Positions 12,476-51,390 of a stretch of 59,582 nucleotides of DNA are shown here, in pieces; position 1 is the stretch's first letter, and every line of letters begins with the position of its first letter. Origin of the DNA: Cellvibrionales bacterium (GTDB lineage: Bacteria > Pseudomonadota > Gammaproteobacteria > Pseudomonadales > Porticoccaceae); the NCBI GenBank assembly GCA_002746135.1, contig NVWE01000003.1:168065-227646 (forward strand). The letters run 5' to 3'. The notes under the pieces are model-generated. The model was not told where the DNA came from. It searched no databases and saw only the letters and a list, made by a program, of their open reading frames with translations. A program made the translations under genes and the position numbers.

Positions 12476-13180
12476 CTACTCCAGCGCCTTCTCTAGCGCC
12501 TGCAGGTAGTAATCCATACCGTGATAACGACTCACACTCAGCCGCTTGCGGCTATAGGCTTCGCCGATCTGAATCTGAATGCCCTGGTCGACTTCGTGGG
12601 GGTGTTTGTACGACCAGAGCCAGCCACGGGGTAGCGCTGTAATCAGGTCGCTGCCGTGGCGATAGGCGATGACTTCACCAATCATGCCATGAGACCAGCA
12701 GCGCCCCACGGTTGCTCTGGGGCATCCAAAGTCGACGAGTGACCGCACGTCATAACCGCAGCTAGCCAGCATGGCAGCAAGCAAACGGGCTTCACCGCCA
12801 CCTTTAGAATGCCCTGTTACACGCACTGGATAACTGCAGTCGTAAGCCTCTACGACCAACTTAAAAACGCCTAAAGCGCCACCGCCTACTCCGCTATAAA
12901 AGCCCCTATGCACCAGGCCAATCATGGTGCGTTCTGGCATTGCTCTAATGTCATTTAGGATGTCGATAACTCGGCTTTTCATGCGCTGCCAAAAGCTATC
13001 TTCTTTGCGCCCGGCCATCTCGGTACCGCACATAGCCAGCCACAATTCGCCGTTCACTATCTCGGCCAAACACTCAGCCTCACCGGCAACAAAGGTGCTC
13101 TCGCTGTAGGCTCTTTTGGCTAATTTTGCGAGGCGAAGATGCAACCAAAGTGGCTGTGTTGATGGCGTCATTTTATTCAA
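12476..13180 (-). CDS. class-3 lipase-like alpha/beta hydrolase
   Basis: 234 aa with the nucleophile elbow VTGHSKGGGEARLLAAML, FGCPRATVG and a C-terminal HGMDYY. The start is TTG at 13180 (overlapping the tail gene stop) or ATG at 13171. Confidence 0.6.
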   Translation of the reverse strand: MNKMTPSTQPLWLHLRLAKLAKRAYSESTFVAGEAECLAEIVNGELWLAMCGTEMAGRKEDSFWQRMKSRVIDILNDIRAMPERTMIGLVHRGFYSGVGGGALGVFKLVVEAYDCSYPVRVTGHSKGGGEARLLAAMLASCGYDVRSLVDFGCPRATVGRCWSHGMIGEVIAYRHGSDLITALPRGWLWSYKHPHEVDQGIQIQIGEAYSRKRLSVSRYHGMDYYLQALEKALE

Positions 13181-15348
13181 ACCCTGTCGAAAGAAACATC
13201 GTGTTTCTGGGTGCTAGTGAGGCCGTCACGAAGCGACTCCAGCTCAATACGAACACTGGTATTCAAGCGCCCGCTAAGGCCGCTGTCAGCCTCTTCAGTT
13301 GCCCATGTATACGTGATGCCAGCCAGCCCTGACTCAGTGCGCACCAGGGCATTATTTTCATCATACAAACGCAGGGTGTAGGTGGTGCCAGGCTCAGGGC
13401 CGATACTGGCTTCATTCGTGTCGATGATTTGATCATCCTGCAGAATGCGGTCACGGTGCGCCCAATCGATAACGAGTTGGCCAGTGATTGAAACCGGATA
13501 AGCGACACCGTTAATTAGTAATTTACCGGGGGGATAAGGCCTGAACTGGCGCTGATCCATCAGCACAGAATCGGTCGCGGCCAGCAGTGGATCCAACTCA
13601 CCCGCGCTGGTGCGTGTCAGCAACCTAACATCAACAGTGGTGCCCACCAGGTACTCCGTGGCGTCAGCGCCAACCACTTCGTCATAAAACCAAACCAGCA
13701 CCCCAGCTGAGTGCGCCTCGGGCACAGTGTCACCACAGCCACGGGCGAGGGTTGCTGTTTCCAGCCCGTAATCGATTGCCTCTACGCGGAATAATTCATC
13801 GTCTATCAGCGCTGCCTCACCCACTTCGACACCACTCAAATCAATAGCACCGTTCAGGCTAATAAGTACGTTTGCAGCACCTTTAGCCATGGCCGCAACG
13901 AGCAATCCAGTAGAGGGGAAATCACCCAGACCCTGCTCGGTAAAACCAACCGGGGCAACGCGTGTTTGCAACGTGTAATTCAAGCTCAGCCCTGTTGGCT
14001 TTACACCCCACGCCAGCACATAACCCGCGTCGTCTTCGAGTGCCGCCTGATCAGCAGCACTCAGCACAGCCGCCAAATCACGATACGAGGCCTCAATCAC
14101 TTTGCGGGTGGCAATCGCCGTTGGTGTGGTGTTCGGCGGCACCCAGCCAGCAGGCTGAACGCCAACAAAACTACTCGCGGGCAGACCAAAAACATCCTCC
14201 ACGGCCGTCACCGTAATCGCGCCCTTACCCAGGGTGCCATAGTCGATTGCACCGGCTCGCAGAATGATATTTTCGATACCTCGGGCGGGGTCACTAATGC
14301 GAAAAACATCACCAGGATTGAGCTTGTAAGCGCGCCTATCGAGCCTCACTTTAAATCGCTTCAGCCCGGACGAACCAATGCGCAAATCGCGCTGAGCAAC
14401 CCGCAATGCCAGCTCGGCGGTGGGCAGGCCAACATAGTCTGCGGTCACCGACACAGTGCCACCGGCCTGAATTGATGCAAGATTTTGCACCCGCACCGAG
14501 CCTGGCTTGTTGGTAATAGGATCATGCCAATTAACCACTTGCTGGTTAAGCCCTCCACTGGTCGCCGCGTTGTTATCCTGCTCTATGCCCAACAGGCCCG
14601 TATCGGGGGTAAAAAGGTCGAGCGTATTGGGGTCATAGTCATCGCGTATCAACGTCAACGACAGCAAGCCAGTGACGCGATCAACAAAAATATTAGCGCC
14701 AATATAATCCTGAATCTGCTGAATAAAATTCTTTACACCATCTCGCCTTACCCAGCGCAGACACAGCCCAAAACCTTCCGCATGCAGCGTGTCAGCTGCC
14801 GCCGCAAATGCGATCGCATCCAGCCGCGTGGCCGACAAGCCTCTACCCCAGTCTCGGTTGGTACTGGCCTCGTAAATAATGTGGGCACCGTTCATGGCTT
14901 TAATATTGTCGTTACTCAAACTTACGACGGCTTTTTCTGGATACCAGGCCGGGCCATCCCAGTCTTTTGTTGCTCGACGAGCACGAATTTTCCAGGGCTT
15001 TGGGTAGGGGTTCATACTGGTCACAAGGCCATCGTAAAACAGGGTACACACACCGCGAAAGGCGGGCACAATACCGCCCAACATTGCTGCCAGAGGCGCA
15101 TTCACCGGCTGACTTTCGCCACCCATTAGCACTTCCATAGTGCCTTGAATACCGCCTTCGCCTTTGTCGCCACCAAATAATTCAGGGGCATCAATAGCCA
15201 CTGTCTGGTTACTGGTGACAGAGCCTTCCCAGGCTGTTTTACCGCCCACTTCTATGGCGACAATTTCATCCACCTCACCCCGACTAACGCCCATGTGAAG
15301 GCCAAAGGAAAAGCGATAACCAACGGTGACTTTCTTGCTACCGCCCAT
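13177..15348 (-). CDS. tail tip / host-specificity protein
   Basis: 723 aa and the last large gene of the tail module. The N-terminus MGGSKKVTVGYRFSFGLHMG...LFGGDKGEGGIQG is typical of phage central-tail/host-specificity proteins. Confidence 0.6.
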   Translation of the reverse strand: MGGSKKVTVGYRFSFGLHMGVSRGEVDEIVAIEVGGKTAWEGSVTSNQTVAIDAPELFGGDKGEGGIQGTMEVLMGGESQPVNAPLAAMLGGIVPAFRGVCTLFYDGLVTSMNPYPKPWKIRARRATKDWDGPAWYPEKAVVSLSNDNIKAMNGAHIIYEASTNRDWGRGLSATRLDAIAFAAAADTLHAEGFGLCLRWVRRDGVKNFIQQIQDYIGANIFVDRVTGLLSLTLIRDDYDPNTLDLFTPDTGLLGIEQDNNAATSGGLNQQVVNWHDPITNKPGSVRVQNLASIQAGGTVSVTADYVGLPTAELALRVAQRDLRIGSSGLKRFKVRLDRRAYKLNPGDVFRISDPARGIENIILRAGAIDYGTLGKGAITVTAVEDVFGLPASSFVGVQPAGWVPPNTTPTAIATRKVIEASYRDLAAVLSAADQAALEDDAGYVLAWGVKPTGLSLNYTLQTRVAPVGFTEQGLGDFPSTGLLVAAMAKGAANVLISLNGAIDLSGVEVGEAALIDDELFRVEAIDYGLETATLARGCGDTVPEAHSAGVLVWFYDEVVGADATEYLVGTTVDVRLLTRTSAGELDPLLAATDSVLMDQRQFRPYPPGKLLINGVAYPVSITGQLVIDWAHRDRILQDDQIIDTNEASIGPEPGTTYTLRLYDENNALVRTESGLAGITYTWATEEADSGLSGRLNTSVRIELESLRDGLTSTQKHDVSFDRV

Positions 15349-30895: not shown

Positions 30896-32143
30896 TCATT
30901 CCTCCCGCCGGTACAACCTGACACCAATACGCGCATCTTCTAGCACTGACACTTCTGGCGCGAAAGTGGTAATGCCCGACCAGCCGTCAGTACCCCACTC
31001 AAAGACGGCCATCGTTGGCACATCCTGTCCCGGCAATTCAAACTGCGCGATATAGCGCCTGCGTACCACGGTTTTTTTCTGTTTAAACTGATACTCCATA
31101 CGCACCCAGATTTCGTCGGGGTCGAGCAGTGCCTCGGCCAGCACAGACATTAGCGGACCACGGTCGCGCTTGTTGGCTTTCAGCAGGCCACTTCGCCTGT
31201 CTAAAAACAGGTTTCTACCCACGGCAACAGCCTCGCCGATAACATCGATATGCACCACCGGTTGCTCCAGCGTTGCGCCAAAAGGTTCGAGGAAGGCCTG
31301 GGCATAAGCCTCATCGCTGAGATTATCGGGCAGCAACTTATCGGCACCCAGGCTGCGCGGTGCGGGCAGCGGGTCAACGGGTCGGGTATTGGGCAAGCCG
31401 GGGCCGCCGGTCGCGCCAGTGATGGGCGGATTCGGCAGCTCTGGCGGTATCGCACCCTCTAGCCGCGAGCGCCCGGGGGTATGCTCAAAACCGGGGTCAA
31501 TGCCTTTGGGCACGGTGACTTCGCGGGGGCCGTTGAGGCTGCGCTGGCCGATTGTGTGGGTCTCTAGTTCCAGCGGCGGGGCTTTGTCTGGCGCTGTTTT
31601 GCCCAGGGCAGCGAGATCGTCTTCGGTCAAACCACTCAGTGAGCACTGGCAACCCCAGGCATTGATAGGGGTATGGGTTTGCAACCAGGGATCGTCGGCA
31701 CGCAGTATTAAACCGTCCCAGGCGAGGTGTTCAGCCCGTGGGTTTTCAGAGCCGCTGTGGTGGTACTGCCTATACGGCAGGGCATCACCGGCCGCCTCTA
31801 GCTGTTCAAAGCGTCCGGCGTTGTAGCTGCTGAATAGATTAGTTTCGTAAATGGTGCGGCTGCGCCAACTGCGCCCGCCGTTGTAGTCCCAGCCATGGGC
31901 GGCAACGATGTTGTCAAAGTCTTTGCGGAAGCCTTCCAGCGTTTCACCCTCGGCAATCACCTTTTCAATAGCGCTGCGAAAGTCGGCAACGATGGCATTG
32001 CGATTGGCACCGGCCACGGTGAATGCATAGTCGCGTTCCGCGCCGTAGATGTCCGTCCAGCTATCCGTGGGGATATTGACCTTGCGGCGCAGGAATTCAA
32101 TTTGTTCGGCAAATGGCAGGGAGCCGTAGCTGGTGTTTGGCAT
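30896..32143 (-). CDS. head morphogenesis protein (Mu F / SPP1 gp7 family)
   Basis: 415 aa from ATG 32143; the track ORF extends to 32191. YRQYHHSGSENPRAEHLAWDGLIL...PINAWGCQCS is the gp7/MuF motif. The chosen start is supported by a duplicated copy of the same 5' end at 32651-32707. Confidence 0.8.
   Translation of the reverse strand: MPNTSYGSLPFAEQIEFLRRKVNIPTDSWTDIYGAERDYAFTVAGANRNAIVADFRSAIEKVIAEGETLEGFRKDFDNIVAAHGWDYNGGRSWRSRTIYETNLFSSYNAGRFEQLEAAGDALPYRQYHHSGSENPRAEHLAWDGLILRADDPWLQTHTPINAWGCQCSLSGLTEDDLAALGKTAPDKAPPLELETHTIGQRSLNGPREVTVPKGIDPGFEHTPGRSRLEGAIPPELPNPPITGATGGPGLPNTRPVDPLPAPRSLGADKLLPDNLSDEAYAQAFLEPFGATLEQPVVHIDVIGEAVAVGRNLFLDRRSGLLKANKRDRGPLMSVLAEALLDPDEIWVRMEYQFKQKKTVVRRRYIAQFELPGQDVPTMAVFEWGTDGWSGITTFAPEVSVLEDARIGVRLYRREE
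32087..32143. repeat. 57-bp direct repeat, copy A (functional 5' end of the MuF gene)
   Basis: gcgcaggaattcAatttgttcggcaaatggcagGgagccgtagctggtgtttggcat is 55/57 identical to 32651-32707. Confidence 0.95.
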
Positions 32144-32144
32144 T

Positions 32145-32414
32145 TTATTTTTGCTCGATACCCTGCTGCTCTCTCGCCTGCCAGACCGCACCCAAAACCT
32201 CGGCTACAATCAAGGCGCGCTGAGAGTAGCGACGATCTTCGCACCGGGGATAATAAAAACAGACTTCATATTTCTGCAGATCATAATCCCACTCGACAGC
32301 AAGACCGCTATAGCCATCACTATTTCTTACGCCCGTATTGACCTTGCATTGCTGTCCACTGAGTGCCTCACGAACCTCCTCTGCCGCTTCTAAAACATCG
32401 TTGCAAATATTCAT
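32145..32414 (-). CDS. hypothetical acidic 89-aa protein (cassette gene 2)
   Basis: Its ATG overlaps the stop of the upstream 53-aa ORF (ATGA). Its stop TAA lies 1 nt before the MuF ATG. Confidence 0.5.
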   Translation of the reverse strand: MNICNDVLEAAEEVREALSGQQCKVNTGVRNSDGYSGLAVEWDYDLQKYEVCFYYPRCEDRRYSQRALIVAEVLGAVWQAREQQGIEQK

Positions 32415-32572
32415 TTTCTAGCTTCTCGCTTTTTTTTCAGCATTTCACGGATTTGGGGCTTTAACCAAAGCTCTTCTTTTGACGAAACCCATATGCCCCG
32501 CATTTCTTTTTGCCCCTGGTCGGCCCTACGTTTTCGCAGAGCTGCAGACTTTTCTTTGCTTGATAACGGCAT
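32411..32572 (-). CDS. small basic 53-aa protein, possibly ribbon-helix-helix-like (cassette gene 1); not in the ORF track
   Basis: My translation: MPLSSKEKSAALRKRRADQGQKEMRGIWVSSKEELWLKPQIREMLKKKREARK. SD aggaa upstream of ATG 32572. Confidence 0.45.
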   Translation of the reverse strand: MPLSSKEKSAALRKRRADQGQKEMRGIWVSSKEELWLKPQIREMLKKKREARK

Positions 32573-32617
32573 TTCCTATTCCTGCCAATATTGAAGACGC
32601 TCTATTCTAGCGCTCAA

Positions 32618-32707
32618 TCAATCATACCGGAGTTGCGCGCAACCGCAAGGGCGCAGGAATTCGATTTGTTCGGCAAATGGCAGTGAGCCGTAGCTGGTGT
32701 TTGGCAT
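32618..32707 (-). pseudogene. duplicated 5' remnant of the MuF gene (19 MuF codons, then out-of-context sequence and a stop)
   Basis: Reads MPNTSYGSLPFAEQIEFLR then PCGCAQLRYD*. Its ATG overlaps the TAA of the upstream 68-aa gene (TAATG). Confidence 0.6.
32651..32707. repeat. 57-bp direct repeat, copy B
   Basis: 55/57 identical to 32087-32143. Confidence 0.95.
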
Positions 32708-32913
32708 TACTTACACCAGACACTAGAGCGCTGTCTGCCTGTTAAGTCGACCCACTTCAACTGTATTGAGGACGGAGACTCTTTACCCGGGTCAAACCAG
32801 ACATTAACGATTTCAAAATTTCCGGCATGTTTGGCCTCGCACAACGAGGCCTTATCCTCGGATTCGTAAATCGCTTCGCATTTTTCGCATTGATAAGCGC
32901 TAATAGGTTTCAT
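32707..32913 (-). CDS. small zinc-ribbon-like protein (68 aa)
   Basis: CEKCEAIYESEDKASLCEAKH (CxxC...C..H). AT-richer than the backbone. Confidence 0.45.
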   Translation of the reverse strand: MKPISAYQCEKCEAIYESEDKASLCEAKHAGNFEIVNVWFDPGKESPSSIQLKWVDLTGRQRSSVWCK

Positions 32914-33056
32914 AGTGTTCTCGCGTTTCTAGCCTTACATTTCTACCCACAAAGCGCTGGCCCTGTCGTGTGATAAAACCGCCAGGCACAGGCTTTGGCT
33001 GCTGCACAAGATAGGTAGCTCGGTTGCCGTGTACCACCACCCATTTAAATCGTTTA

Positions 33057-33239
33057 CTAATCAATTGATTTCTCCTTGCTCGGTGTTACTTTCTTAATCT
33101 TTGTACATTCAAAAACAGTGTCGCCAACAAAAAACTTACCCAGCCTTTCGCATTCATCTGCAACGGTGATGTGGGCATGCCGCCAGCCACCGAGCCAACC
33201 GATTAGAAACGCCAACAAGACCCAGAAAAGCAACTTCAC
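33057..33239 (-). CDS. small membrane protein (60 aa)
   Basis: GTG start overlapping the portal stop (GTGA). TM segment LLFWVLLAFLIGWLGGW. Confidence 0.4.
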   Translation of the reverse strand: MKLLFWVLLAFLIGWLGGWRHAHITVADECERLGKFFVGDTVFECTKIKKVTPSKEKSID

Positions 33240-34843
33240 CGCAACCTTTCGCTTTCATCGAACACTTCATTGCGCCCCGCCAAATTCGCGGTCGCGAGGC
33301 CGTCACGCATGGCGGCGGCGTAGTCGTCTAGGGTCATGGCTGGGTACAGCTCTAGCAGGCGATCGCGCAGTTCGTCGAGGCTGCTCACCTGGTGGGCGAG
33401 TTCGCGCACGGCGTTGATCCACTGGTCGATGGGCTGACTGAGGTTGTCGGCGAGCTGGTCGAGCATTTGCTGGGGTGGCTGGGGATCTGCGGTTTTTTGT
33501 TTTAAGGGCCTCAACACTGCGTTCAGTGTTGCCTGCTGTTCGTCGGCAATCGGCAAGGGCTTGGGGGCTGCAGGCGCTGCGGGTGGCATGAGAATATCCT
33601 CACCCTCTTCCGGCTCGGGAATGCCCACTTTCTCCTGTGCCCATTGGCGGCCAATGCGATAGCCCATGGCCACCAGTTTGGGCAGGGCTTCGGCGTGGGC
33701 GCTGAGGTCTTCGGGCTGGCTGACGTCAAACTGATAGCGCGGGCAGCGCCGCCAGTCGGCAGTGAGTCCGTTTAAAATAGCGATGGGGTAAATCAGGTCG
33801 CGGCTAATGGTGTTGGCCACTTGCCGGGCGTCGGCGTCGCGCAGGTCAATGCGGCATTCGTTATGTACATTGCCCAGGGCGTTGGTGTTGGTGCCCGCAC
33901 CGCTGTCGCTGGTGAGGGTGCCGCCCAGTATGGCTTTGCTTTGGGTGCGCTCTGCCCACGAAATCATCGCGTTGTAGGCATCGGGGTCGCCAGTAGTGGC
34001 GTTGTGAAAATCGACTTCCATACCAGCCGGAATAATACCGGCGGCGTTGTGGCCGATTTGTGCCAGCGCGCGCAGCAGAGTCAGCTTTTCGTCATTGCTG
34101 GCACCGCCGGGGTATTTACCCAGACGCATGGGGATGCCGTAAATTTCTAGGAATTCAGCGAGATCACCCACCGAGTAATTTTTAAACAGGTAGGGCCAGA
34201 CCAGCACGCGGAACAGGGCCGAGCGCTCAAGGTAACCGCTTTTGGCTTTGTGCTTGTGCACGATCCAGCCGAAGGGGTTGAGGGGCTCGCCGCCCACGGG
34301 GCCACGCAGACGAAGGTGTTGCTCGGTGGTGTCGCGATAGGTCACGAACCAGCTTTGGGGCCGGTGGGTAATGCTGAGGGGCAGGCGTTCGCCCTGGGTG
34401 CGGCTCCAGCCGCCGAATTCGAGGCAGGCAAAGCCTTTGCCGATGGCGTCGGTAATATCAAACAGCACGTCGTCAAAATCGTCAATGGCGTGCAGTAGTT
34501 CGCCCAGCACGCGGGCGTTGTCTTTTTCTTTCTCGCTGGCATTGGGGGGCGGTACAACTTCACCCGGCAGGCTCAGCAAGGCTCGGCGGCGCTTGCCCAT
34601 CTCGGCATAAACGTGGCCATCTTTTTCTTCGATATCTTCGTACAGCTCAAACTGGGCCTGCATGTTGCCGCGCTCGGCTTCATCGAGAATAGTGGCCAGC
34701 TTTGAGGGCGTTAAACCCCGCGAGGGGTGGCCCTGAAATTCGTGGTGCAGGCCTAAGAGCTTTGCGGTTTGCGGCTCAGCCAGGGTGGCTTTGTCGATTT
34801 TCATGGGCTTACCATCGAGCCCCAATATAGATGTCATCACCAT
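33236..34843 (-). CDS. portal protein (Mu gp29 / DUF935-like)
   Basis: 535 aa, overlapping the end of TerL. Size and position match a Mu-type portal. Confidence 0.8.
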   Translation of the reverse strand: MVMTSILGLDGKPMKIDKATLAEPQTAKLLGLHHEFQGHPSRGLTPSKLATILDEAERGNMQAQFELYEDIEEKDGHVYAEMGKRRRALLSLPGEVVPPPNASEKEKDNARVLGELLHAIDDFDDVLFDITDAIGKGFACLEFGGWSRTQGERLPLSITHRPQSWFVTYRDTTEQHLRLRGPVGGEPLNPFGWIVHKHKAKSGYLERSALFRVLVWPYLFKNYSVGDLAEFLEIYGIPMRLGKYPGGASNDEKLTLLRALAQIGHNAAGIIPAGMEVDFHNATTGDPDAYNAMISWAERTQSKAILGGTLTSDSGAGTNTNALGNVHNECRIDLRDADARQVANTISRDLIYPIAILNGLTADWRRCPRYQFDVSQPEDLSAHAEALPKLVAMGYRIGRQWAQEKVGIPEPEEGEDILMPPAAPAAPKPLPIADEQQATLNAVLRPLKQKTADPQPPQQMLDQLADNLSQPIDQWINAVRELAHQVSSLDELRDRLLELYPAMTLDDYAAAMRDGLATANLAGRNEVFDESERLR

Positions 34844-36529: not shown

Positions 36530-37087
36530 TCAGGACTTGCCCAGCAGTATGCCGCGAATACGGCCTTCGAGCTGCTCGCTCATGCCGTCACTGCCGAGGG
36601 CTTCTTCAAGGCGGGATTCCTGTTCTTTTAGCAAACGCGCACGGGCATCGGCTTCAACCTGGCGGCGTTCATCCATGCTCAACTTGCGGGCCTGAATCAC
36701 GTCTTTAGCCGCACGGGCCAACTTGCGCACATCGTCGATAGCCAGCTTGCTATCGGCGGCGTCTTGTTGCGCGGCAAAGGTGGCGTGGTTTACCAGGGTG
36801 GTGAGAGATTGCACCATTAGCGCACCGGCGCGGTCGTCAGGGTTTTCGCCCAGCTCCTGCACTAGCAGGCGGGACATGGTTTCTTGCTCGCGCATATTCG
36901 CGACCAGCTGGTCGAAGCCGACGCGGTAACGGCCCAGGGCGGAGCGGCTGGGCTTTTGCTCAGCGGGGAATTCGGTGTGCAGGTCGGTAATTAACTCATC
37001 GAGAGTGAGGCGATTTTCACGCAGGCGGCGCTCGATATGGGCGCGCACATCAGGCTGGAGTTTGTCGATAGTGGATTTACGGCCCAT
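36530..37087 (-). CDS. DUF3486 protein (terminase small subunit-like, Mu gp27 position)
   Basis: 185 aa. MGRKSTIDKLQPDVRAHIERRLRENRLTLDELI is typical of DUF3486. Confidence 0.65.
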   Translation of the reverse strand: MGRKSTIDKLQPDVRAHIERRLRENRLTLDELITDLHTEFPAEQKPSRSALGRYRVGFDQLVANMREQETMSRLLVQELGENPDDRAGALMVQSLTTLVNHATFAAQQDAADSKLAIDDVRKLARAAKDVIQARKLSMDERRQVEADARARLLKEQESRLEEALGSDGMSEQLEGRIRGILLGKS

Positions 37088-37088
37088 G

Positions 37089-37382
37089 TCATGCCCCCGG
37101 CTTTTTCACGCCCGGCACCTGGGCACGGCCGGCGGCAACGTCGGCACCGCGCTCGGTGAGGGTGGCGATGAGCAGATTGCTGATATCGTCAATGCTGACC
37201 AGGCCTTGCTCCTGTAACCAGAGCAGCTCGGTTTTCACCAGGTCGCGGCTGGGGCTGTGGCCATATTCGCTGAGCACATTGGTGAGCACCGAGCTGTTGG
37301 CTTTGTAGCTGGGCATGTTGGCGAGGATGCGCAGCATGACCAGGCGCTGGTCTTCGCGTAAATATTCGGTGAAAGGCGGCAT
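37089..37382 (-). CDS. winged-helix-like small protein (Mu gp26 position)
   Basis: 97 aa. REDQRLVMLRILANMP...ELLWLQEQGLVSI. Confidence 0.4.
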   Translation of the reverse strand: MPPFTEYLREDQRLVMLRILANMPSYKANSSVLTNVLSEYGHSPSRDLVKTELLWLQEQGLVSIDDISNLLIATLTERGADVAAGRAQVPGVKKPGA

Positions 37383-37407
37383 GGCTATTCCTTCTTTTAA
37401 TCAATCG

Positions 37408-37626
37408 CTATGTTTCTTTACGAGCTATGTTTTCAACAGCATCAATAATGTCCTTTATTTCCCAGTCAGCATTACTCTTGATGCCCACCAGCTCGCGTAC
37501 TCTCTGCATACCCATTTCCCAGCGGTCTTTCCTTATGCATACGCCGTCGTTACGAACCTCGTAATCCGCAGGATCTTTTCCCCTGAATTCAGGGATGACA
37601 AAATCTTGTTGTGTTGCTTGTCTCAT
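37408..37626 (-). CDS. hypothetical 72-aa protein (AT-rich moron)
   Basis: ATG start, own spacers on both sides, AT-richer than its neighbours. Confidence 0.35.
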   Translation of the reverse strand: MRQATQQDFVIPEFRGKDPADYEVRNDGVCIRKDRWEMGMQRVRELVGIKSNADWEIKDIIDAVENIARKET

Positions 37627-37671
37627 AATGTTCTCAAAATTGAGAGCCCAATCTTGCGTGCCTTTAAAGCC

Positions 37672-37974
37672 TTATTTGTGGCTTAACAGATAGTCGTTAA
37701 TACGATTGAGGCTGCTATCAATGGGTTTTAGCTGTTTTGACAGGCCGTCGATTTCGGCCTCCATTTTGCCGAGGCGTTCAAACAACAGGCTGATTTGCTG
37801 GCGGGTGGGCACATGGGCCATCTGGCTTTCCATGGTGATTATTTTGCGGTTCATTTCGTCAAAGACGGTTTGCTTGACCGACTGACGATTCGCGTTAAAG
37901 GAATAAATAGCGAAGGCAATAACGACCACCCAGCGGATAAATTCACTACCAAAATACAATTCATCAGCGTTCAA
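37672..37974 (-). CDS. DUF2730-like membrane protein (Mu gp25 position)
   Basis: 100 aa with TM segment FIRWVVVIAFAIYSF followed by a coiled-coil-like tail. TTG start. Confidence 0.5.
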   Translation of the reverse strand: MNADELYFGSEFIRWVVVIAFAIYSFNANRQSVKQTVFDEMNRKIITMESQMAHVPTRQQISLLFERLGKMEAEIDGLSKQLKPIDSSLNRINDYLLSHK

Positions 37975-38158
37975 GATTCTTTCCTTCTGAGCCTATGGCC
38001 CCAGCGCTGGTGCTTTGGCCATCACACCAGCGACCAAAGGCGCGAGCCTGATTCACCAGTGCCCGGCGTAACGCAACGATTTCAGCGTGGGCCTGGCTGC
38101 ATAAGGGCAAGTCGCTCGCCTGTAGTTTTTCAAGAAGATCACCTTTCACATCGTTCAA
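37964..38158 (-). CDS. hypothetical first gene of the late operon
   Basis: 64 aa. TTG start, or GTG 9 nt further in. No motif recognised. Confidence 0.3.
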   Translation of the reverse strand: MNDVKGDLLEKLQASDLPLCSQAHAEIVALRRALVNQARAFGRWCDGQSTSAGAIGSEGKNLER

Positions 38159-38278
38159 CCCTTATCAATTGACAGCTACTCATTGCAAACAAGTGCCGTG
38201 ACAGTAGGCTAAAAACGACGGATAGGCTTTTGAACGGGGGCAAAATCAACACCGCGCGCGCAGGTGTAATCTGGCGAT

Positions 38279-38797
38279 ATGAGTAATATTTCTCTAAGCC
38301 CAGACGCTATTCTTGAGCAAACTAACCTCACCGGGGCAGTTGCCGATATCCAGGATAGCCCGGCCAGTCCTGACGCCAATTGGCTTACCGCGCCAGGCAA
38401 TAATGTAGCCACTACGGTACGCACGTCGCTGCCAACACCACCCAACAATTTGAACGCCGGTGCGGCCTTACAACAATTTCGCCTGTGGGTGCGCAAAACA
38501 AACCATTCCACTGATCCGCTGATGACAGTGGAGCTATACGAGGATGGCGCACTAATAGCCACGCTGGCCACGGGGGCCGGGGTCTCTAGCATCAGCGGCC
38601 AACTGCTGACATACACCTGGGACGCAGCCCTTTTAAGCGCCATTAGCGGCGTTGATGTGGAGTGCCGAATCAGTGGCACCTCTGGTGGGGGCAAGCCTAC
38701 CAACCGTGCGGCCCTTGAAATTGGCGCTATGGCCTGGGATGCCGATTATGCGGTCAGCACCGGCCCCACGTTGCTGTTAGCCCTGGTACCGGCATGA
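38279..38797 (+). CDS. hypothetical protein, cassette gene 1 (beta-rich, structural-like)
   Basis: 172 aa. First of seven tightly packed plus-strand ORFs. Confidence 0.5.
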   Translation: MSNISLSPDAILEQTNLTGAVADIQDSPASPDANWLTAPGNNVATTVRTSLPTPPNNLNAGAALQQFRLWVRKTNHSTDPLMTVELYEDGALIATLATGAGVSSISGQLLTYTWDAALLSAISGVDVECRISGTSGGGKPTNRAALEIGAMAWDADYAVSTGPTLLLALVPA

Positions 38798-38807
38798 GCA
38801 GCCACGC

Positions 38808-39320
38808 ATGAGCACGGTCTATCGCGGCGCATTCGCTACCCTCTGGATTACCCTGCAGGCCAATGAAGCCCTGGGCATTCTCGACGCTGACTATTTAGAA
38901 GATTACTTCGGCAACGACAGCCAGGTATCGCTGTATCACATCGCTAGCGATACCCATTACCCGGTGTTGATGCTCGACCAGCCACTGGTAACACCGCTGA
39001 TCCCCTATGACATATTCAAGGGCCAAATAGCCATGGCGAGCCTGCCTGACGGGGCTTACCAGGTGCGCGGCCGTTGTCGTGATGTGGGCGGCAATTACAC
39101 CATCTTAAGCGCCGTACAAAGCCCCCTTGGCGGCGAGCAGGTGCTGGCGATGGAATTTAACATTCAGCCGGGGCAAGGCTTGCACTTCACCGTGCAACTG
39201 CCCTTTGGGCTGATTCGCATGGGTCTGGATATGGGCACGCTGGATCGCCCGACATTGCCCCATCATTTACTCAACCGTGACCAGCCAATGGCTGAATTAC
39301 GCACTGTACTGGAGCGCTAA
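38808..39320 (+). CDS. hypothetical protein, cassette gene 2
   Basis: 170 aa, starting 10 nt after gene 1. Confidence 0.5.
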   Translation: MSTVYRGAFATLWITLQANEALGILDADYLEDYFGNDSQVSLYHIASDTHYPVLMLDQPLVTPLIPYDIFKGQIAMASLPDGAYQVRGRCRDVGGNYTILSAVQSPLGGEQVLAMEFNIQPGQGLHFTVQLPFGLIRMGLDMGTLDRPTLPHHLLNRDQPMAELRTVLER

Positions 39321-39631
39321 TGGTCTACACCGACGACAACGGTTTTACGCTGGATTTTACCAGCCAGTTTGACCTCACCGCCATGACCAGTGTGCGCATG
39401 TTAATTCGTCGCCCCAGCAACAGCGTGGCGGCCTACGATTTTGCCCTGGCTGAATTCAATACGGTGAACGTGGGCGGTGTGCTGAGCTACTTGGTGCGCC
39501 CTGGGGATTTGACGGTGGATGGCGATTATTTGTTTCAGGTGATTGCCAAAGATGCGAATTCTGACGTGGCGTTTAAGCCCTACACCCTAAAAGTTGAACG
39601 CCGCATTGCCGGTAATGGGTGGAATATATGA
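39320..39631 (+). CDS. hypothetical protein, cassette gene 3 (Ig/beta-sandwich-like)
   Basis: 103 aa. Start overlaps the previous stop (TAATG). Confidence 0.45.
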   Translation: MVYTDDNGFTLDFTSQFDLTAMTSVRMLIRRPSNSVAAYDFALAEFNTVNVGGVLSYLVRPGDLTVDGDYLFQVIAKDANSDVAFKPYTLKVERRIAGNGWNI

Positions 39632-39777
39632 GCGTGATAAGCGTGCGCTGCAGCCAGTGCAATAAGTCCTTTTCAATCAACCCGGCAGCGGGCCAGCCCG
39701 TCGCGCCAGTGTGCCCCAAGTGCGCGCCACGCATTAACAAAACCATTGTTAAAAAGGAGAAAAACCATGCGCTTTGA
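39628..39777 (+). CDS. 49-aa zinc-ribbon protein, cassette gene 4; not in the ORF track
   Basis: My translation: MSVISVRCSQCNKSFSINPAAGQPVAPVCPKCAPRINKTIVKKEKNHAL. Two CxxC pairs. ATGA overlap with gene 3. Confidence 0.45.
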   Translation: MSVISVRCSQCNKSFSINPAAGQPVAPVCPKCAPRINKTIVKKEKNHAL

Positions 39778-39982
39778 AAGCATTCACGAGATCCCCAAGA
39801 CCCTGCGCAGAATCGGCGGCACGCAGCTGTCGATTGACCAAATTGAAGCACTGCTCGACGAAGCAGACAGCAGCGAATTGCCCAATGGTGCCGCACTGGC
39901 ACAGGCGAAACGCGATTTTATAACCCGCCACAAGCCCGTGGGCGGGCACTGGGTTGCCACTAACACAGGAGCAAGCGCGTAA
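39767..39982 (+). CDS. hypothetical 71-aa protein, cassette gene 5
   Basis: The preferred ATG is at 39767, with SD aaggag 7 nt upstream; the track ORF starts at 39746. Confidence 0.45.
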   Translation: MRFESIHEIPKTLRRIGGTQLSIDQIEALLDEADSSELPNGAALAQAKRDFITRHKPVGGHWVATNTGASA

Positions 39983-40899
39983 TGTTGACACTCAATTTAG
40001 CAGGCGGCTCACAGGCCGACCCTATTCTCGCAGGCCTGGGCCTGAAGCTGGTGGGCGCAGGCTCATCATTCGACATCGCCACGGTGAACGACGCGTTTAT
40101 TGATGCCGCCACTGGGGCTGGTGTAACCACGGTGAAAGCCAGCCTTACCCCAGCGGCGACGGTGGTGACGGCGGCCTCTACCGGCAGCTATAACGACACC
40201 ACCAAAAGCTGGACGATGAGTAGCACCACCGGCCTGACAGCAGGCGACCCCATTTACCTGAGCCATGCCAGCATTACCGATGGCATTTACTACCTTGGCA
40301 GCGTGGTGAATGGCACCGACTACACGGTGGAGGATGCCAACGGCGTCAACCCCATGGACGGCGGCGGCGTCCAGAGCAGCATTTTCTATCAGGTGGCCTG
40401 GGCCTGGGTGGGGGCTGGTGACGCGGTACCCATTAACCACAACAGCGCAGGCGACCAAAACTTTTGGAAATTTCAGGCCGACGATGGCGCGGTAAGCTCC
40501 ATCGCCGAAGACAGCTTTTGGGTGGCCGACAGCCCCGCTGGCGCTGCCTTTATTCAGATTGAGGGCGGCGACTACAGCGGCCAAACCGTGGCCGACAATT
40601 TGCTGACACTGGTGATACTCACCGGCTGGGCGAACAATGGCGGCATTAGCCATGTTGAAATGGCCAACCATTCGGTGCAAACGGTTAACAATTTCATCTG
40701 GACATCGGGCGGCGGCACTGGCGAAGTGGCCCTGGCCACGGCCGAAGGTGGCCTGACCGCATCGGCAGGCGACGGCAACAAGTACGGCCAGCTGGTGTTT
40801 AAAGCCAAAGCGGGCAGCGCCTATGACGTAACGGCCGATATTGACGTGATTGTCGATAGCACCGGGCCATTGTTGGTATTAACTCTGGTGGCGGCGTAA
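39982..40899 (+). CDS. hypothetical 305-aa Gly/Ala/Thr-rich protein, cassette gene 6 (fibre/structural-like)
   Basis: Start overlaps the previous stop (TAATG). Beta-rich composition, no enzymatic motif seen. Confidence 0.5.
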   Translation: MLTLNLAGGSQADPILAGLGLKLVGAGSSFDIATVNDAFIDAATGAGVTTVKASLTPAATVVTAASTGSYNDTTKSWTMSSTTGLTAGDPIYLSHASITDGIYYLGSVVNGTDYTVEDANGVNPMDGGGVQSSIFYQVAWAWVGAGDAVPINHNSAGDQNFWKFQADDGAVSSIAEDSFWVADSPAGAAFIQIEGGDYSGQTVADNLLTLVILTGWANNGGISHVEMANHSVQTVNNFIWTSGGGTGEVALATAEGGLTASAGDGNKYGQLVFKAKAGSAYDVTADIDVIVDSTGPLLVLTLVAA

Positions 40900-40904
40900 T
40901 TACC

Positions 40905-41228
40905 ATGAAAATTGACATCGCCCAACTCGCGTTTATCGACCCCACCCTGCGCGACATATTGCTGCAGGCGGAAAAAGCCACCGGCTTTGAATTCACCATC
41001 ACCAGCCTGTACCGCATTGGCGACAAGGGCGTGCACGGCACACTGCCACTGCGGGGGGCTGACCTGCGGGTGCGCCTACCCGCCGCTGGCGAGGTGATGG
41101 CGGATTATATTAATGCGCGCTGGCAGTACGATAGCGAGCGGCCCGCTATGCGCTGTGCGGTGCTGCACGGCATGGGGGCTAATTTACATTTGCATGTGCA
41201 GGTGCATCCCAGGACTGGGAGGGCTTGA
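40905..41228 (+). CDS. small peptidase M15-like protein (tentative cell-wall hydrolase), cassette gene 7
   Basis: 107 aa. TSLYRIGDKGVHGTLPLRGADLRV and HLHVQVH loosely resemble the SxxR / H..D / H zinc-ligand pattern of M15 peptidases. Confidence 0.35.
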   Translation: MKIDIAQLAFIDPTLRDILLQAEKATGFEFTITSLYRIGDKGVHGTLPLRGADLRVRLPAAGEVMADYINARWQYDSERPAMRCAVLHGMGANLHLHVQVHPRTGRA

Positions 41229-41232
41229 GGGT

Positions 41233-41781
41233 TTAGCAGTCACGCAAGATAGCCAACAATTTAGTCCGCTCAGCACTATCCATCGTCAGCCTGTGCTTTG
41301 CTTTAACTAACCACCACCGGGCTGCGTACTCGCAATGATACCTTGCCAGTGGTGGCATCCACTTCGCAGGATCTTTACTTCCCTTAGACCGATTGGCCCT
41401 TGCGATGACCGGGAGCAGGTTTTCAGGGTCATTAGCAAAGGCTCTCTTTTTGGCCCGCGTCCAGTGCTCACCGCCAGAGATATGCGCCTCTTTTAGCGGC
41501 ACGATATGGTCAATATCTAACCGCCCTGCATTAATAAAAACATCACCCGTGTAGGGGCCAATCCATCGACCTGAAACCACTCGACAACCCTGTAGAGTCA
41601 GCGGCCCTGCATTTTTTGCTATGAGTATTTCAGCCCGTGTGTTTTGGCAGTCGCCATCAACATCAGCCCAATAAGGCCAGTCCAGCCGATCATAAGAGCC
41701 CGCGAAAGCGACCAGGGGGATGAGTGCTAGTAGAGCGAGCTTCAAGGCTAGGGCACGACTAAAACCGCTTTGATGGCACAA
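41233..41781 (-). CDS. exported DUF1524 / His-Me finger (HNH-like) nuclease
   Basis: Signal peptide KLALLALIPLVAFAG/S, then DIDHIVPLKEAH and NDPENLLPVIARANRSKGSKDP. The start is uncertain: TTG 41781, or TTG 41745 just after the upstream stop. Confidence 0.6.
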   Translation of the reverse strand: MCHQSGFSRALALKLALLALIPLVAFAGSYDRLDWPYWADVDGDCQNTRAEILIAKNAGPLTLQGCRVVSGRWIGPYTGDVFINAGRLDIDHIVPLKEAHISGGEHWTRAKKRAFANDPENLLPVIARANRSKGSKDPAKWMPPLARYHCEYAARWWLVKAKHRLTMDSAERTKLLAILRDC

Positions 41782-42113
41782 ACAAAGTTAGCCAGGTCGC
41801 TTTTGCTCGAGCCGTCAACAAGATCAAACCATTTGGTCGGCCTAATTGTCATGGCGGAAAGCGACTCACCATAACCCAGCTCGCGCATTTTCGTCGTCTT
41901 ACAGTTTGTTTCTGTTTTTGAATAGGATGCGGACAAAGCGCTAATGCGACTGCTGCTTGCGACAACAACATCACCTTTTATCGCCATTGTTAGCAGGTAA
42001 TAATTAGCGTTCTCAACCCGGCTTCGCGGGATAAGTAGTTCGGCATGGACTAGCACCGGGGTGTTTGCCGCAATGGCTAATAGTCCAATTAGTACGACTT
42101 TACACAGTCTCAT
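41748..42113 (-). CDS. exported 121-aa hypothetical protein
   Basis: Signal peptide MRLCKVVLIGLLAIAANTPVLVHA/E. ATGA overlap with the repressor stop. AT-rich. Confidence 0.45.
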   Translation of the reverse strand: MRLCKVVLIGLLAIAANTPVLVHAELLIPRSRVENANYYLLTMAIKGDVVVASSSRISALSASYSKTETNCKTTKMRELGYGESLSAMTIRPTKWFDLVDGSSKSDLANFVCAIKAVLVVP

Positions 42114-42601
42114 TGTTTTTCCTCTTTTGGCTTATCACTAGCGGCCTGTTGAGCCAGGGCTTTTGCAGACACGTCGAGTGACAGCTTGCCAACACCATTA
42201 CTACGCCGATAGTTGTCGACCAGGTTTAGCTCTCGACCGCTGAGATAAACCGGCGAAGGCGGCTCGGCCACGCTGCCCCCAGGCTCATGTTTCACGACTT
42301 CATACGCTTCTAAGGCCAGATTTGTTAGTTCGCCACCCTCTGGCTCCCTATCAACACTGAGGCTTAGAGCTGCGGCGAGCTTATCGTCAATCGCTTTTGG
42401 CAGGCGGTTGCCAGTGAGGATGTAGGCGATATCGACCCCGGCTTTACTGATAGCTAGCAAATAGTCCGCGTTCGGCGAGCGATCCCCCTTTTCATAATTG
42501 ACCTGTGAACGCCTGTTCACACCAGCCAGCTCGGCAAATTCACCCTGCCCATAGCGCAGCCTGTTTCGCTCTTCTTTTAATCGATCACAAAATAAAGCCA
42601 T
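42110..42601 (-). CDS. prophage repressor (XRE-family HTH)
   Basis: 163 aa. LRYGQGEFAELAGVNRRSQVNYEKGDRSPNADYL is an HTH_3 motif. Divergent from the early operon. Confidence 0.75.
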   Translation of the reverse strand: MALFCDRLKEERNRLRYGQGEFAELAGVNRRSQVNYEKGDRSPNADYLLAISKAGVDIAYILTGNRLPKAIDDKLAAALSLSVDREPEGGELTNLALEAYEVVKHEPGGSVAEPPSPVYLSGRELNLVDNYRRSNGVGKLSLDVSAKALAQQAASDKPKEEKQ

Positions 42602-42619
42602 ACAAGCCCCGACAAACTA

Positions 42620-42648
42620 TTGACAAGCGCACGTTTATGCGCAATTAT
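42620..42648 (+). promoter_or_regulatory. candidate early promoter (TTGACA-17 nt-AATTAT) with an embedded operator-like inverted repeat
   Basis: TTGACA at 42620-42625 and AATTAT at 42643-42648. GCGCA (42627-42631) / TGCGC (42638-42642) lie inside the spacer. Confidence 0.45.
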
Positions 42649-42690
42649 GAGAACGTAAATACACAACAGCACACAGAAGAGGCGACCCCC

Positions 42691-42927
42691 ATGAACAAAT
42701 CCAGCCCCAACACACCCCTGCCGTATCCGCAAACTCCAGAAAGCGCACGCGCCTGGTTCGTTGATCACGGCATTTGCCAAACAGCCTGGTCAAAATCCCT
42801 GGGCATATCTCGCGCAGCCGTGGTCGATCTTATTCATGGCCGCCGCAAAGGGCATCGTGGAGAAGGCCATCGCGCCGCCATCTTGCTCGGCCTAAAGCTT
42901 GACCCCTCTGCAAGCCAGGCTGCTTAA
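42691..42927 (+). CDS. Ner-like small DNA-binding protein
   Basis: 78 aa from ATG 42691, with SD gaagagg. AWFVDHGICQTAWSKSLGISRAAVVDLIHG. First gene of the early operon. Confidence 0.5.
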   Translation: MNKSSPNTPLPYPQTPESARAWFVDHGICQTAWSKSLGISRAAVVDLIHGRRKGHRGEGHRAAILLGLKLDPSASQAA

Positions 42928-43035
42928 GCATGCATTCAACACCGCTCATTATCCACAATGAAACGCTATTGCCTATGGGCAATCTTGTCTTTTGTTTGGA
43001 AGCCCTGCAATGCCCCCCTTTACGGGAGATGTCCA

Positions 43036-50583: not shown

Positions 50584-51047
50584 GTAAAGCAGCTGCGAAT
50601 CCGACCCGTTTACGTTTGATAAAAATCATTCATGTGGCCCGTCGTGAGTTGGGTATGGATGAGTCAACCTATCGTTTAATGCTGGGCAATTTGCCGGGTT
50701 TGGATGGTGCGACATCAAGTGCAAAATTGACCATTCCACAACTACGGTTGGTTTTGGATGGGTTCAAAAAGCGGGGCTTTAAGGTGCGTCCAAAAGGCGG
50801 CCCTGGTAAAGCAGGCACTCGAAAAATGGCTGATGATAATCAGTCGAAATTGATCCGCCATTTATGGTTGGAATTACACAGCGCGGGTGCTGTGCGCGAC
50901 CCTTCTGAACAGGCCCTGGCGAAGTTCGCTGGCAAGATGACGAAGGTGGGCTCGCTGCAATGGTTGAGCTCGCAGCAGGCGAGCCAGGTGATCGAGAATC
51001 TGAAGAATTGGTTGCACCGAATTAAGGAAGGAGCAGATGATGAGTAA
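50580..51047 (+). CDS. GemA-like regulatory protein (DUF1018, Mu gp16)
   Basis: 155 aa. LIKIIHVARRELGMDESTYRLML...LTIPQLRLVLDGFKKRGF. Confidence 0.65.
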   Translation: MSKAAANPTRLRLIKIIHVARRELGMDESTYRLMLGNLPGLDGATSSAKLTIPQLRLVLDGFKKRGFKVRPKGGPGKAGTRKMADDNQSKLIRHLWLELHSAGAVRDPSEQALAKFAGKMTKVGSLQWLSSQQASQVIENLKNWLHRIKEGADDE

Positions 51048-51390
51048 TGATTCACCGATGGAAGCATTACGCCATGAACTGCTTTCAGATGTGGCCGAGC
51101 ATACGACATTAATACTCAAGCAGCATGGCATTGATACCGATGTCGCTGACCAGGCTGGCTGTTCTATCAGCAATCATCTCGCCGAGCATTGGGGTGGCCA
51201 GGTGGTGAGCATTCCAAAAAACTATTTATACAAGTTGAGCCAACGTGACCAGGTCATCTATGAGGAGTTCAACGGCACTAATCACTCTGCGTTATCACGC
51301 AAGTATGATGTGTCGGTGAGGGCTATCTATAAGATCATCACGAGAGTACGAAAAAGAGAGGTCGATAAGCGTCAAATCCAGATGTTTTGA
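51037..51390 (+). CDS. Mor-family transcriptional activator
   Basis: 117 aa. WGGQVVSIPKNYLYKLSQRDQVIYEEFNGTNHSALSRKYDVSVRAIYKII is the Mor/C HTH pattern. Last gene before the right tip. Confidence 0.75.
   Translation: MMSNDSPMEALRHELLSDVAEHTTLILKQHGIDTDVADQAGCSISNHLAEHWGGQVVSIPKNYLYKLSQRDQVIYEEFNGTNHSALSRKYDVSVRAIYKIITRVRKREVDKRQIQMF

Follow-up and report, generated by a model that had tools for sequence, protein, structure and literature searches.

A tightly packed cassette in a Mu-like prophage of a Cellvibrionales bacterium combines a portable five-gene phage module with an exchangeable partner gene and a probable endolysin

Results

Layout and coding status of the cassette

We describe here a cassette of seven plus-strand genes, c1 to c7, at positions 38279-41228 of a 59,582-nucleotide (nt) stretch of contig NVWE01000003.1 (assembly GCA_002746135.1) from a Cellvibrionales bacterium of the Porticoccaceae; this whole stretch is called the window, and coordinates without a locus name refer to it. 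The cassette lies roughly in the middle of a Mu-like transposable prophage that spans ~11.5-51.4 kb of the window. As a preliminary description of this DNA had it, the late operon, whose start is at 38158, and the repressor operon (41233-42601) enclose it on either side, both on the minus strand. Its first gene, c1 (38279-38797), encodes a variable partner protein of 172 amino acids (aa), and is followed by two genes for core proteins, c2 (38808-39320, 170 aa) and c3 (39320-39631, 103 aa, beta-rich). The zinc-ribbon gene c4 (39628-39777) encodes 49 aa from its ATG or 52 aa from a GTG at 39619, and c5 (39767-39982) encodes 71 aa from an ATG that is preceded by an AAGGAG ribosome-binding site, or 78 aa from a TTG at 39746. 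The cassette ends with c6 (39982-40899), whose 305-aa product is the signature protein of the module described below, and with c7 (40905-41228), an add-on gene for a probable endolysin of 107 aa. All seven frames are present and as tightly packed as was first described: c1 and c2 are separated by 10 nt and c6 and c7 by 5 nt, c4 and c5 overlap by 11 nt, and the remaining junctions are formed by TAATG (c2/c3 and c5/c6) or ATGA (c3/c4). Their G+C content of 0.55-0.59 is similar to that of the rest of the prophage, which bears out the backbone-like composition noted earlier.

These seven open reading frames (ORFs) are genes and not chance frames, since they have homologues and since the ratio of non-synonymous to synonymous substitution rates (dN/dS) of c2-c6 is 0.11-0.33 when compared with two relatives at a synonymous divergence (dS) of ~1. 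Homologues of c2-c6 occur in ~20 other loci, and these five genes are under purifying selection. Searches of Pfam, PHROGs, NCBIfam and PADLOC gave no significant match for any of c1-c7 except weak zinc-ribbon matches of c4; the initial statements that no motif could be assigned with confidence and that the cassette is of no recognized family therefore stand. At E<=1, no tail-fiber, baseplate or tail-assembly profile of Pfam or PHROGs was matched by any of the seven proteins, in none of which a transmembrane (TM) segment, a signal peptide or an N-terminal hydrophobic segment was found. A megablast search of 37000-43000 against phages and E. coli genomes returned zero matches.

A portable core module, c2-c6

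The preliminary description had treated the seven genes as one unit. When the seven cassette proteins were searched against all ORFs of 21 loci encoding a c6 relative, this view did not hold, as only c2-c6 travel together. c5 and c6 are adjacent in every c6 locus (c5 lies directly upstream of c6 in 20 of the 20 ORF sets), c2 is present in nearly all of them, and c3 and c4 are present in most; c1 matches one locus only and c7 matches none. The order of the genes varies: some loci have c2-c3-c4-c5-c6, others c4-c5-c6-c2-c3. The cassette is a composite of the c2-c6 module, a swappable c1 and an unrelated c7.

The module recurs in ~20 other phage or prophage contigs that represent ~ten unrelated backbones, mostly inside head and tail gene clusters. 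Two Mu-like prophages carry it at the same site as the window, L001 (c6 83% identical) and L023 (c6 87% identical), with different genes in front of the module and with c7 absent. In a Mu-like contig of a Porticoccaceae metagenome-assembled genome (MAG; L022) it is found in the head region, between Mu F and scaffold/cement genes, and in an HP1/P2-like prophage (L002) it follows a P2-type tail fiber and DUF4376 genes. Elsewhere it stands shortly after the major head protein, in three loci with three different capsid families (L006, L011 and L019), just before the major tail protein (L015), downstream of the central fiber J (L007) or directly after a tail fiber (L012). These observations indicate that c2-c6 is a self-contained, horizontally portable phage module. 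When three divergent c6 proteins were used as tblastn queries, zero matches were obtained in 50,697 phage genomes, and no c6 relative turned up in two scans of representative genomes of bacteria and archaea. A c2 protein 99% identical to that of the window is annotated in a Kordiimonadaceae (alphaproteobacterial) MAG (P0126), and more distant copies of the module are found in Porticoccaceae (gammaproteobacterial) MAGs.

Folds and conservation of the core proteins

c6 has at least 122 homologous clusters, none of them annotated, with a near-constant length of ~304 aa, and its dN/dS is 0.11-0.12. Its AF2 model (predicted local distance difference test score, pLDDT, 95.8; predicted template-modeling score, pTM, 0.89) is all-beta and multi-domain, with an immunoglobulin (Ig)-like architecture. 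Foldseek searches of PDB and BFVD with this model returned only generic Ig-like repeat proteins (pilins, S-layer domains, cadherins and phage structural proteins), with E-values down to 1e-5/1e-6 and template-modeling scores (TM-scores) of ~0.2, the best PDB match being a donor-strand-complemented CfaB fusion (E=1.3e-5, TM-score 0.16). On the model, the fold class of c6 is clearly Ig-like, and no specific family emerges. In c2, which has 33 homologous clusters (alignment A3) and is found in 20 ORFs of c6 loci, the ~125 N-terminal residues form a conserved Ig-like/E-set beta-sandwich and the ~45 C-terminal residues are variable. Its AF2 model (pLDDT 69) resembles CopC and the sulfite-oxidase dimerization domain (Foldseek E ~2e-3 to 6e-3), and its dN/dS is 0.13-0.14. 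The impression recorded at the outset that several of the proteins look beta-rich or structural agrees with these two modeled sandwiches.

The smaller core proteins are less easily placed. c3 homologues stand immediately after c2 in 13 locus ORFs (dN/dS 0.23-0.25) and gave zero family matches in Pfam, PHROGs and NCBIfam. c4 is the CxxC...CxxC zinc ribbon that had been picked out from the letters, followed by a basic C-terminal helix (dN/dS 0.33); it matches Zn_ribbon_8 (E=7e-4) and FmdB-type (E=2e-3) profiles weakly, and its Cys pairs are kept in most of 11 aligned sequences, L008 having no second pair and the spacing of the first pair being variable. c5 has invariant P10, Q25 and W62 (alignment A4) and a dN/dS of 0.16-0.27, and may be an assembly factor or a chaperone. 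A likeness of c5 to ChaB-like proteins was considered but not supported by profile searches of Pfam and PDB, and alignment profiles of c6, c5 and c7 found nothing meaningful among PDB sequences.

A variable partner that shares the tail of c6

c1 consists of an N-terminal domain of ~150 aa and a C-terminal tail, ...AVSTGPTLLLALVPA, that is encoded at 38762-38794 and shared with c6, which ends in ...VDSTGPLLVLTLVAA (encoded at 40864-40896); the near-matching ends of the two proteins read ...STGPTLLLALVPA in c1 and ...STGPLLVLTLVAA in c6. The likeness of the two tails scores 32 against a background of -9.6 +/- 6.8. c1 itself is rare, with only 4 homologues in 5.8 billion proteins. Its N-terminal domain resembles that of a 374-aa tail-bearing protein of L011 (E=3e-23), and it has only the last 30 residues in common with its 333-aa counterpart in L001.

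The same arrangement is found across the module's range. When the last 11 residues of each ORF were scored against the c6 tail of its own locus, 17 of 19 locus records (14 distinct loci) had exactly one other ORF that bears the tail of its own c6, on the same strand and within the cluster. The partner proteins are 172-802 aa long and their bodies are mostly unrelated to one another: one has an Exo_endo_phos domain (E=7e-16), two match ConA-like lectins weakly, and one (L015) has a tail-fiber-type N-terminal domain. The tail-bearing ORFs called in L012, L015 and L017 are only 58-91 aa long and are probably fragments of larger genes. In L015 a 661-aa ORF with the tail-fiber-type domain (7383-9368) overlaps the 91-aa tail-bearing ORF (9248-9523) by 120 nt in another frame, a split that might stem from an error in sequencing or from programmed frameshifting, and in L017 an 88-aa tail-bearing ORF (13897-14163) directly follows a 704-aa ORF.

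The tail co-varies between c6 and its partner within each locus. For example, c6 and its partner end in ...PTLSISVEAR and ...PTLSMGVEAR in L018, in ...PTITHSVVGR and ...PTITQSIVGR in L015, and in ...PVLTLSLYGA and ...PSLFMSAYGA in L006. The mean tail score was 22.9 within a locus versus 8.6 across loci, and 0 of 20000 permutations reached the observed sum, a figure that is not a strict probability since some loci are related. The consensus of ~11 residues is G-P-[TV] followed by alternating hydrophobic residues and an end of G/A-A/R. In c6 the tail follows a conserved Gly-Pro, has a beta-strand-like alternation and is an unpaired coil in the monomer model; a terminal strand with alternating hydrophobics that is common to c6 and the partners and co-varies within loci is what a donor strand would show. 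The two tail-coding stretches of the window agree at 23 of 30 first and second codon positions and at 7 of 15 third positions. Because the agreement is confined to positions 1 and 2, the likeness appears to reflect selection on the peptide rather than a recent gene conversion. Most simply, the tail strand would let c6 and the variable protein bind one common partner. A tail-anchored membrane protein was considered and set aside, as the hydrophobic stretch after Gly-Pro has only ~9-10 residues and is polar in other loci (GPTLSISVEAR).

c7, a probable endolysin from a separate family

The family of c7 comprises 324 clusters in a representative library of 1.8 billion proteins, its members being 105-125 aa long with the consensus ITSxxRxGDxGVHGTxPxRGxDLR...HxHxQVHPNT. 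Fourteen positions are invariant in alignment A8 (T33, S34, R37, H44, D53, N70, Y75, D76, R79, H88, H95, Q99, H101 and T104) and H97 is nearly so; in a 105-member alignment (A6), H44, D53, H88, H95 and H97 are each at least 90% conserved. Informative profile matches among the 105 relatives are few, one to Peptidase_M15_3 and two to endolysin PHROGs. Small TM or lipoprotein ORFs are overrepresented among the neighbors of the family (42% versus 23%, p=0.001), and 31 of 52 viral loci have such an ORF, with a holin-, i-spanin- or o-spanin-like N-terminus among those seen, within two genes. Homologues of c1-c6 were absent from the 64 viral contigs that carry the c7 family (L033-L096).

The preliminary description had found the last gene loosely similar to an M15 peptidase, and the H..D..HxH residues, the few family matches and the lysis-cassette neighbors all agree with this. 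As judged from the sequence, c7 is probably a divergent LAS/M15-like endolysin. It resembles M15/LAS endolysins such as the T5 L-alanyl-D-glutamate peptidase and members of Peptidase_M15_3 and M15_4 in its size (~110 aa), in a conserved pattern of (T/S)-S-x-x-R ... H-x8-D ... H-x-H with His and Asp residues of a metal-binding type, and in the occurrence of family members beside holin-, i-spanin- and o-spanin-like ORFs. It differs from them in that c7 and 104 of its 105 relatives fall below the Pfam M15 models, with zero PDB sequence matches, and in that 8 residues lie between His and Asp. In LAS enzymes this spacing is 6 intervening residues. A Peptidase_M15_4-like gene carried by L001 is not a counterpart of c7, as BLASTP gave no alignment between the two and the hhalign probability was 0.7%.

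The surrounding prophage and the divergent region

The minus-strand late operon encodes DUF2730, a Mu gp27-like protein, TerL, Mu portal, Mu F, Phage_tail_S and the Mu I protease, and ends with a siphovirus-type distal tail that comprises a BR0599/Gp84_N hub protein and a Phage-tail_3 J-like protein. The plus-strand early operon includes a BcepMu gp16-family protein (42505-42927), Rha, the transposase, DUF3164 and GemA, with Mor (51037-51390) as its last gene. The prophage had initially been set in a BcepMu-type frame. The divergent early/late layout is as described and the gp16-family protein is present, but the best matches of TerL are JBD25-group Pseudomonas transposable siphophages (78% identical) and the tail genes are of the siphovirus/J type and not those of a myovirus such as BcepMu; by sequence, the backbone is closest to B3/JBD25-type transposable siphophages. 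In JBD25, a lysis cassette that includes an SLT transglycosylase opens the late operon, and the DUF2730 gene follows directly. Comparison of 37964-38158 of the window with 2444-4352 of JBD25 (L097) showed that homologues of JBD25 gp29-gp31 are present in the window and that gp24-gp28, which include the SLT transglycosylase, have no homologue. The flanking genes are thus kept, and the prophage lacks the usual lysis cassette at the very point from which the plus-strand cassette starts.

The late operon and the cassette diverge from an intergenic region (38159..38278) that contains a 22-nt element at 38228-38250, TTTTGAACGGGGGCAAAATCAA, which can also be written TTTTGAAC(N)GGGGCAAAATCAA. It is unique in the window even with 3 mismatches allowed (0 expected by chance) and identical in the Mu-like L001 (6942-6962) and L023 (1030-1050), in which coding dS is ~1. 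It is found too in a Mu-like contig without the plus-strand cassette (L024, 1992-2012); six other metagenome matches, all inside unrelated genes, are due to chance. Since it occurs in L024, and since the window and L001 both have it at a constant ~60-70 nt from where the late operon starts, the element probably serves the late promoter of the backbone as an activator site; it is a candidate Mor-type activator or operator site. The same two observations weaken its candidacy as the mark of the cassette's own promoter, which the preliminary description had suggested for this region; neither a sigma-70-type promoter nor a terminator was predicted in 38159-38278 or after c7, and the suggestion is not upheld.

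Three overlapping co-oriented minus-strand genes occupy 41233-42601 on the other side of the cassette. These are the repressor (HTH_3, 42110-42601), a 121-aa protein with a signal-peptide-like N-terminus that belongs to PHROG 13843 of unknown function (41748-42113), and a 182-aa GmrSD_C/HNH-type nuclease with a hydrophobic N-terminus (41233-41781) that ends 4 nt from the c7 stop. By their sequences the latter two look like lysogeny-expressed cargo; PADLOC gave zero matches for either. Within the late operon, a minus-strand insert of low G+C (~0.50) at 32200-33240 separates Mu F (30896-32191) from the portal gene (33236-34843). Five small ORFs lie in it, among them those of a single-TM protein of 60 aa (33057-33239) and a Cys-rich protein of 68 aa (32707-32913), and it may contain the missing holin or spanin. 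The M15_4-like gene of L001 mentioned above occupies the same slot. Downstream of the J-like tail gene, a Lipase_3 protein (12476-13180, minus) and a D12-class adenine methyltransferase (11561-12325, minus) may be the last genes of the prophage.

Discussion

The recurrence of c2-c6 in unrelated phages, mostly among head and tail genes, hints at a role in the particle. We suggest, while putting it somewhat short of an even chance, that c2-c6 is a portable accessory module for the display of Ig-like proteins at the surface of the virion, c6 being the main subunit, that c1 is an exchangeable ligand-binding partner attached through the same C-terminal strand, that c4 and c5 are assembly factors, and that c7 is an unrelated lysin. 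The c2-c6 proteins would most likely build a dispensable outer structure of the virion, an appendage or a decoration. The conserved, Ig-like c6 would be the main displayed subunit, c2 and c3, taken as small Ig-like sandwiches, would act as adaptor or acceptor pieces, and the c4 zinc ribbon and c5 would assist assembly. c1 would be the exchangeable 'head' protein of this particular phage, a position held elsewhere by lectin-like, phosphoesterase-containing or fiber-like proteins, and, like c6, might dock onto their common partner by the ~11-residue tail, which would probably add to an Ig-like domain as a beta-strand. Such docking would add a swappable binding or enzymatic activity to the particle. 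Both the docking by the tail and the roles of c2-c5 are our suggestions from these patterns. Of the two options raised in the preliminary description, an auxiliary receptor-binding/fiber plus lysin module and an independent cargo system, the first fits better.

For c7, the conserved residues and gene contexts of its family, together with the missing SLT cassette, suggest that the prophage uses it in place of the SLT lysis cassette that its closest cultured relatives have, so that this small metallopeptidase-like endolysin would stand in for the usual lysis gene; c7 would accordingly be expected to have lytic activity. The structural contexts of the module elsewhere and the probable endolysin at the end of the cassette would also argue for late expression of the cassette.

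Several observations weigh against this account. c6 has no homologue in the 50,697 sequenced phage genomes, and hence none among phages whose virion proteomes or cryo-electron microscopy maps could be compared. In the window, L001 and L023 the module lies outside the late operon, on the opposite strand and beside the immunity region, a spot that is typical also for lysogeny-expressed cargo. Virions with very different capsids and tails would require the module either to use a generic docking site or to bring its own platform, neither of which was found. No tail-bearing partner was found within reach of the module in L014 and L022, and a mutual-information scan within c6 linked the tail to strands at residues ~20-28 and ~141-149 only weakly (z 3.4-4.4) and in two registers. 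As for c7, it has itself zero M15 or endolysin matches in Pfam, PHROGs and PDB, and in the window it follows c6 and faces a convergent gene, with no holin- or spanin-like genes flanking it.

The position beside the immunity region also fits a non-virion cargo, carried as a moron, whose products would act within or at the cell in superinfection exclusion, anti-defense, a new type of defense or some other lysogenic conversion. The module adjoins the repressor operon and opposes the late operon in all three prophages with this site, the adjoining genes that are co-oriented with the repressor (the HNH/GmrSD_C nuclease and the secreted-looking 121-aa protein) are cargo-like, and no homology to structural families of Pfam and PHROGs was found. 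Moreover, two phage-like contigs of 172-191 kb (L004 and P0098) carry the module among nucleotide-metabolism or replication genes, which counts against our account as well; the genes called around the module in these large contigs, however, include no temperate-phage genes. The module is also co-directional within head and tail gene clusters in at least 8 backbones, its G+C matches the backbone, its core has no enzymatic, NTPase or nuclease domain, the modeled proteins all being Ig-like sandwiches, and c1-c7 match no PADLOC model of a known anti-phage defense system. We consider cargo unlikely, although it is the most credible of the alternatives. Only slightly less credible is the idea that c1 and c6 are virion proteins whose tail is not a docking strand but is recognized by a folding or assembly chaperone that both share (c5, perhaps together with c4), comparable to tail-fiber assembly proteins that act on fiber C-termini. 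The invariable, translationally coupled position of c5 immediately upstream of c6 would suit this, tail co-variation within loci is what one common binder would produce, and the L015 partner has its tail-fiber-type domain at the N-terminus, the end that normally attaches to the particle. On the other hand, c6 is predicted to be a well-folded monomer without any partner (pLDDT 96), unlike the intertwined trimeric fibers that need chaperones, c5 matches no known chaperone family, and the partner genes are 3-6 kb away from c5 in L010 and L011.

It would be tempting to read the tail as a donor strand in the strict sense. c6 would then polymerize head-to-tail in the cytoplasm by insertion of the strand into the neighboring Ig-like domain, and an interchangeable c1-class tip with the same strand would cap the filament, which would be seated on c2/c3. 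This is speculative, and we regard it as improbable. Short tails can also direct proteins into capsids, as in the cargo tails of encapsulins and the C-terminal tail of the HK97 protease, and the c1 and c6 tail might load both into the procapsid as internal or ejected proteins. A short C-terminal tag on otherwise unrelated proteins, the frequent proximity of the module to major head or scaffold genes and a partner with a phosphoesterase/nuclease-type domain would be expected in that case; but Ig-like and lectin-like domains are typical of exposed phage proteins, the module is also found after tail-fiber genes, and the backbones have capsids of different families (PHROGs 212, 371, 752 and Mu-type), with the tail tracking c6 and not the capsid type. 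Capsid targeting is very unlikely. We give as little credence to the genes being ordinary tail-fiber or baseplate components of this lineage that have diverged too far to be recognized. The preliminary description had named this outcome, with conservation at the same position in related phages, as the one that would overturn its proposal. The position is indeed kept in the two related Mu-like prophages, and the module adjoins tail-fiber genes in L002, L007 and L012, but the proteins belong to no known tail-fiber or baseplate family of Pfam or PHROGs, whereas the prophage's own tail genes do match. In addition, the late operon already has a complete siphovirus-type distal tail set (the Phage-tail_3 J-like protein and the BR0599/Gp84_N hub), the module is altogether missing from the closest cultured relatives (JBD25 group, TerL 78%), and it moves between myovirus-, siphovirus- and Mu-type backbones. 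The cassette is best read as neither an ordinary tail-fiber/baseplate set nor a known defense system.

Display on the virion surface by way of Ig-like domains has precedents. Hoc-type Ig-like decoration proteins are described as having a C-terminal attachment element and exposed Ig domains (PMC10385173). Like T4 Hoc, T5 pb10 and the N4 Ig-like decoration proteins, the module encodes non-enzymatic, phage-borne strings of Ig-like domains, the tandem domains being apparent in the c6 model, and its genes, too, are often near the major head gene. c6 has no sequence match or specific fold match to annotated decoration proteins, however, and here the Ig-like body is conserved and the attachment element would amount to only ~11 residues after the last domain. 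There are also four conserved companion genes and an exchangeable second protein with the same tail.

A second comparison is with pili assembled by strand exchange, that is, chaperone-usher pilins such as CFA/I CfaB and type V pili. In the type V pili of Bacteroidia, a C-terminal donor strand fills the groove of the neighboring subunit. The module shares with these systems Ig-like subunits, a short terminal strand with alternating hydrophobics, and a conserved 'stalk' subunit paired with variable 'tip'-like proteins that bear the same strand. The likeness of c6 to the CfaB fusion is only a generic Ig-like one, as the TM-score given above shows, and searches of the module proteins turned up neither a signal peptide or lipobox nor an usher, a periplasmic chaperone or a processing protease. 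Given that these secretion parts are missing, assembly by strand exchange would have to be cytoplasmic. Fiber cassettes (P2 H/G, Mu S/U and lambda Stf/Tfa) are likewise accessory, exchanged late-gene cassettes with a hypervariable distal protein and small companions, and the module stands after tail-fiber genes in several backbones; yet it has zero homology to fiber and Tfa families, c6 models as a monomeric Ig-like protein and not as a trimeric fiber, and the variable part, which is normally C-terminal in fibers, is here followed by a C-terminus that is the conserved tag. The module cannot be shown to belong to any of these systems and would rather be an accessory virion surface module with an unusual shared tail.

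For annotation, our results imply that the 'seven-gene cassette' is better split into three units of differing history. c7 reveals an unannotated family of ~320 clusters of small probable endolysins, which viral contigs often carry. Widespread as it is, the c2-c6 module amounts to phage 'dark matter': its c6 clusters, of which there are at least 122, come from marine, soil and other metagenomes, and yet it is absent from Pfam, PHROGs, NCBIfam, PADLOC, PDB and the 50,697 deposited phage genomes. The pairing of a conserved Ig-like protein with a hypervariable protein that has the same locus-specific tail predicts a concrete mechanism of protein-protein docking. If the proteins are indeed on the particle, this would be a new route by which phages gain or swap adhesins or surface enzymes independently of their tail fibers, and the tail would be a candidate minimal tag for the decoration of phage particles. 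Should even the improbable donor-strand filament prove true, the module would encode a secretion-independent, pilus-like phage appendage with plug-in tips that can move between unrelated backbones, and would thereby represent a new principle of virion-appendage assembly, with a natural 11-residue tag that attaches arbitrary proteins to a phage.

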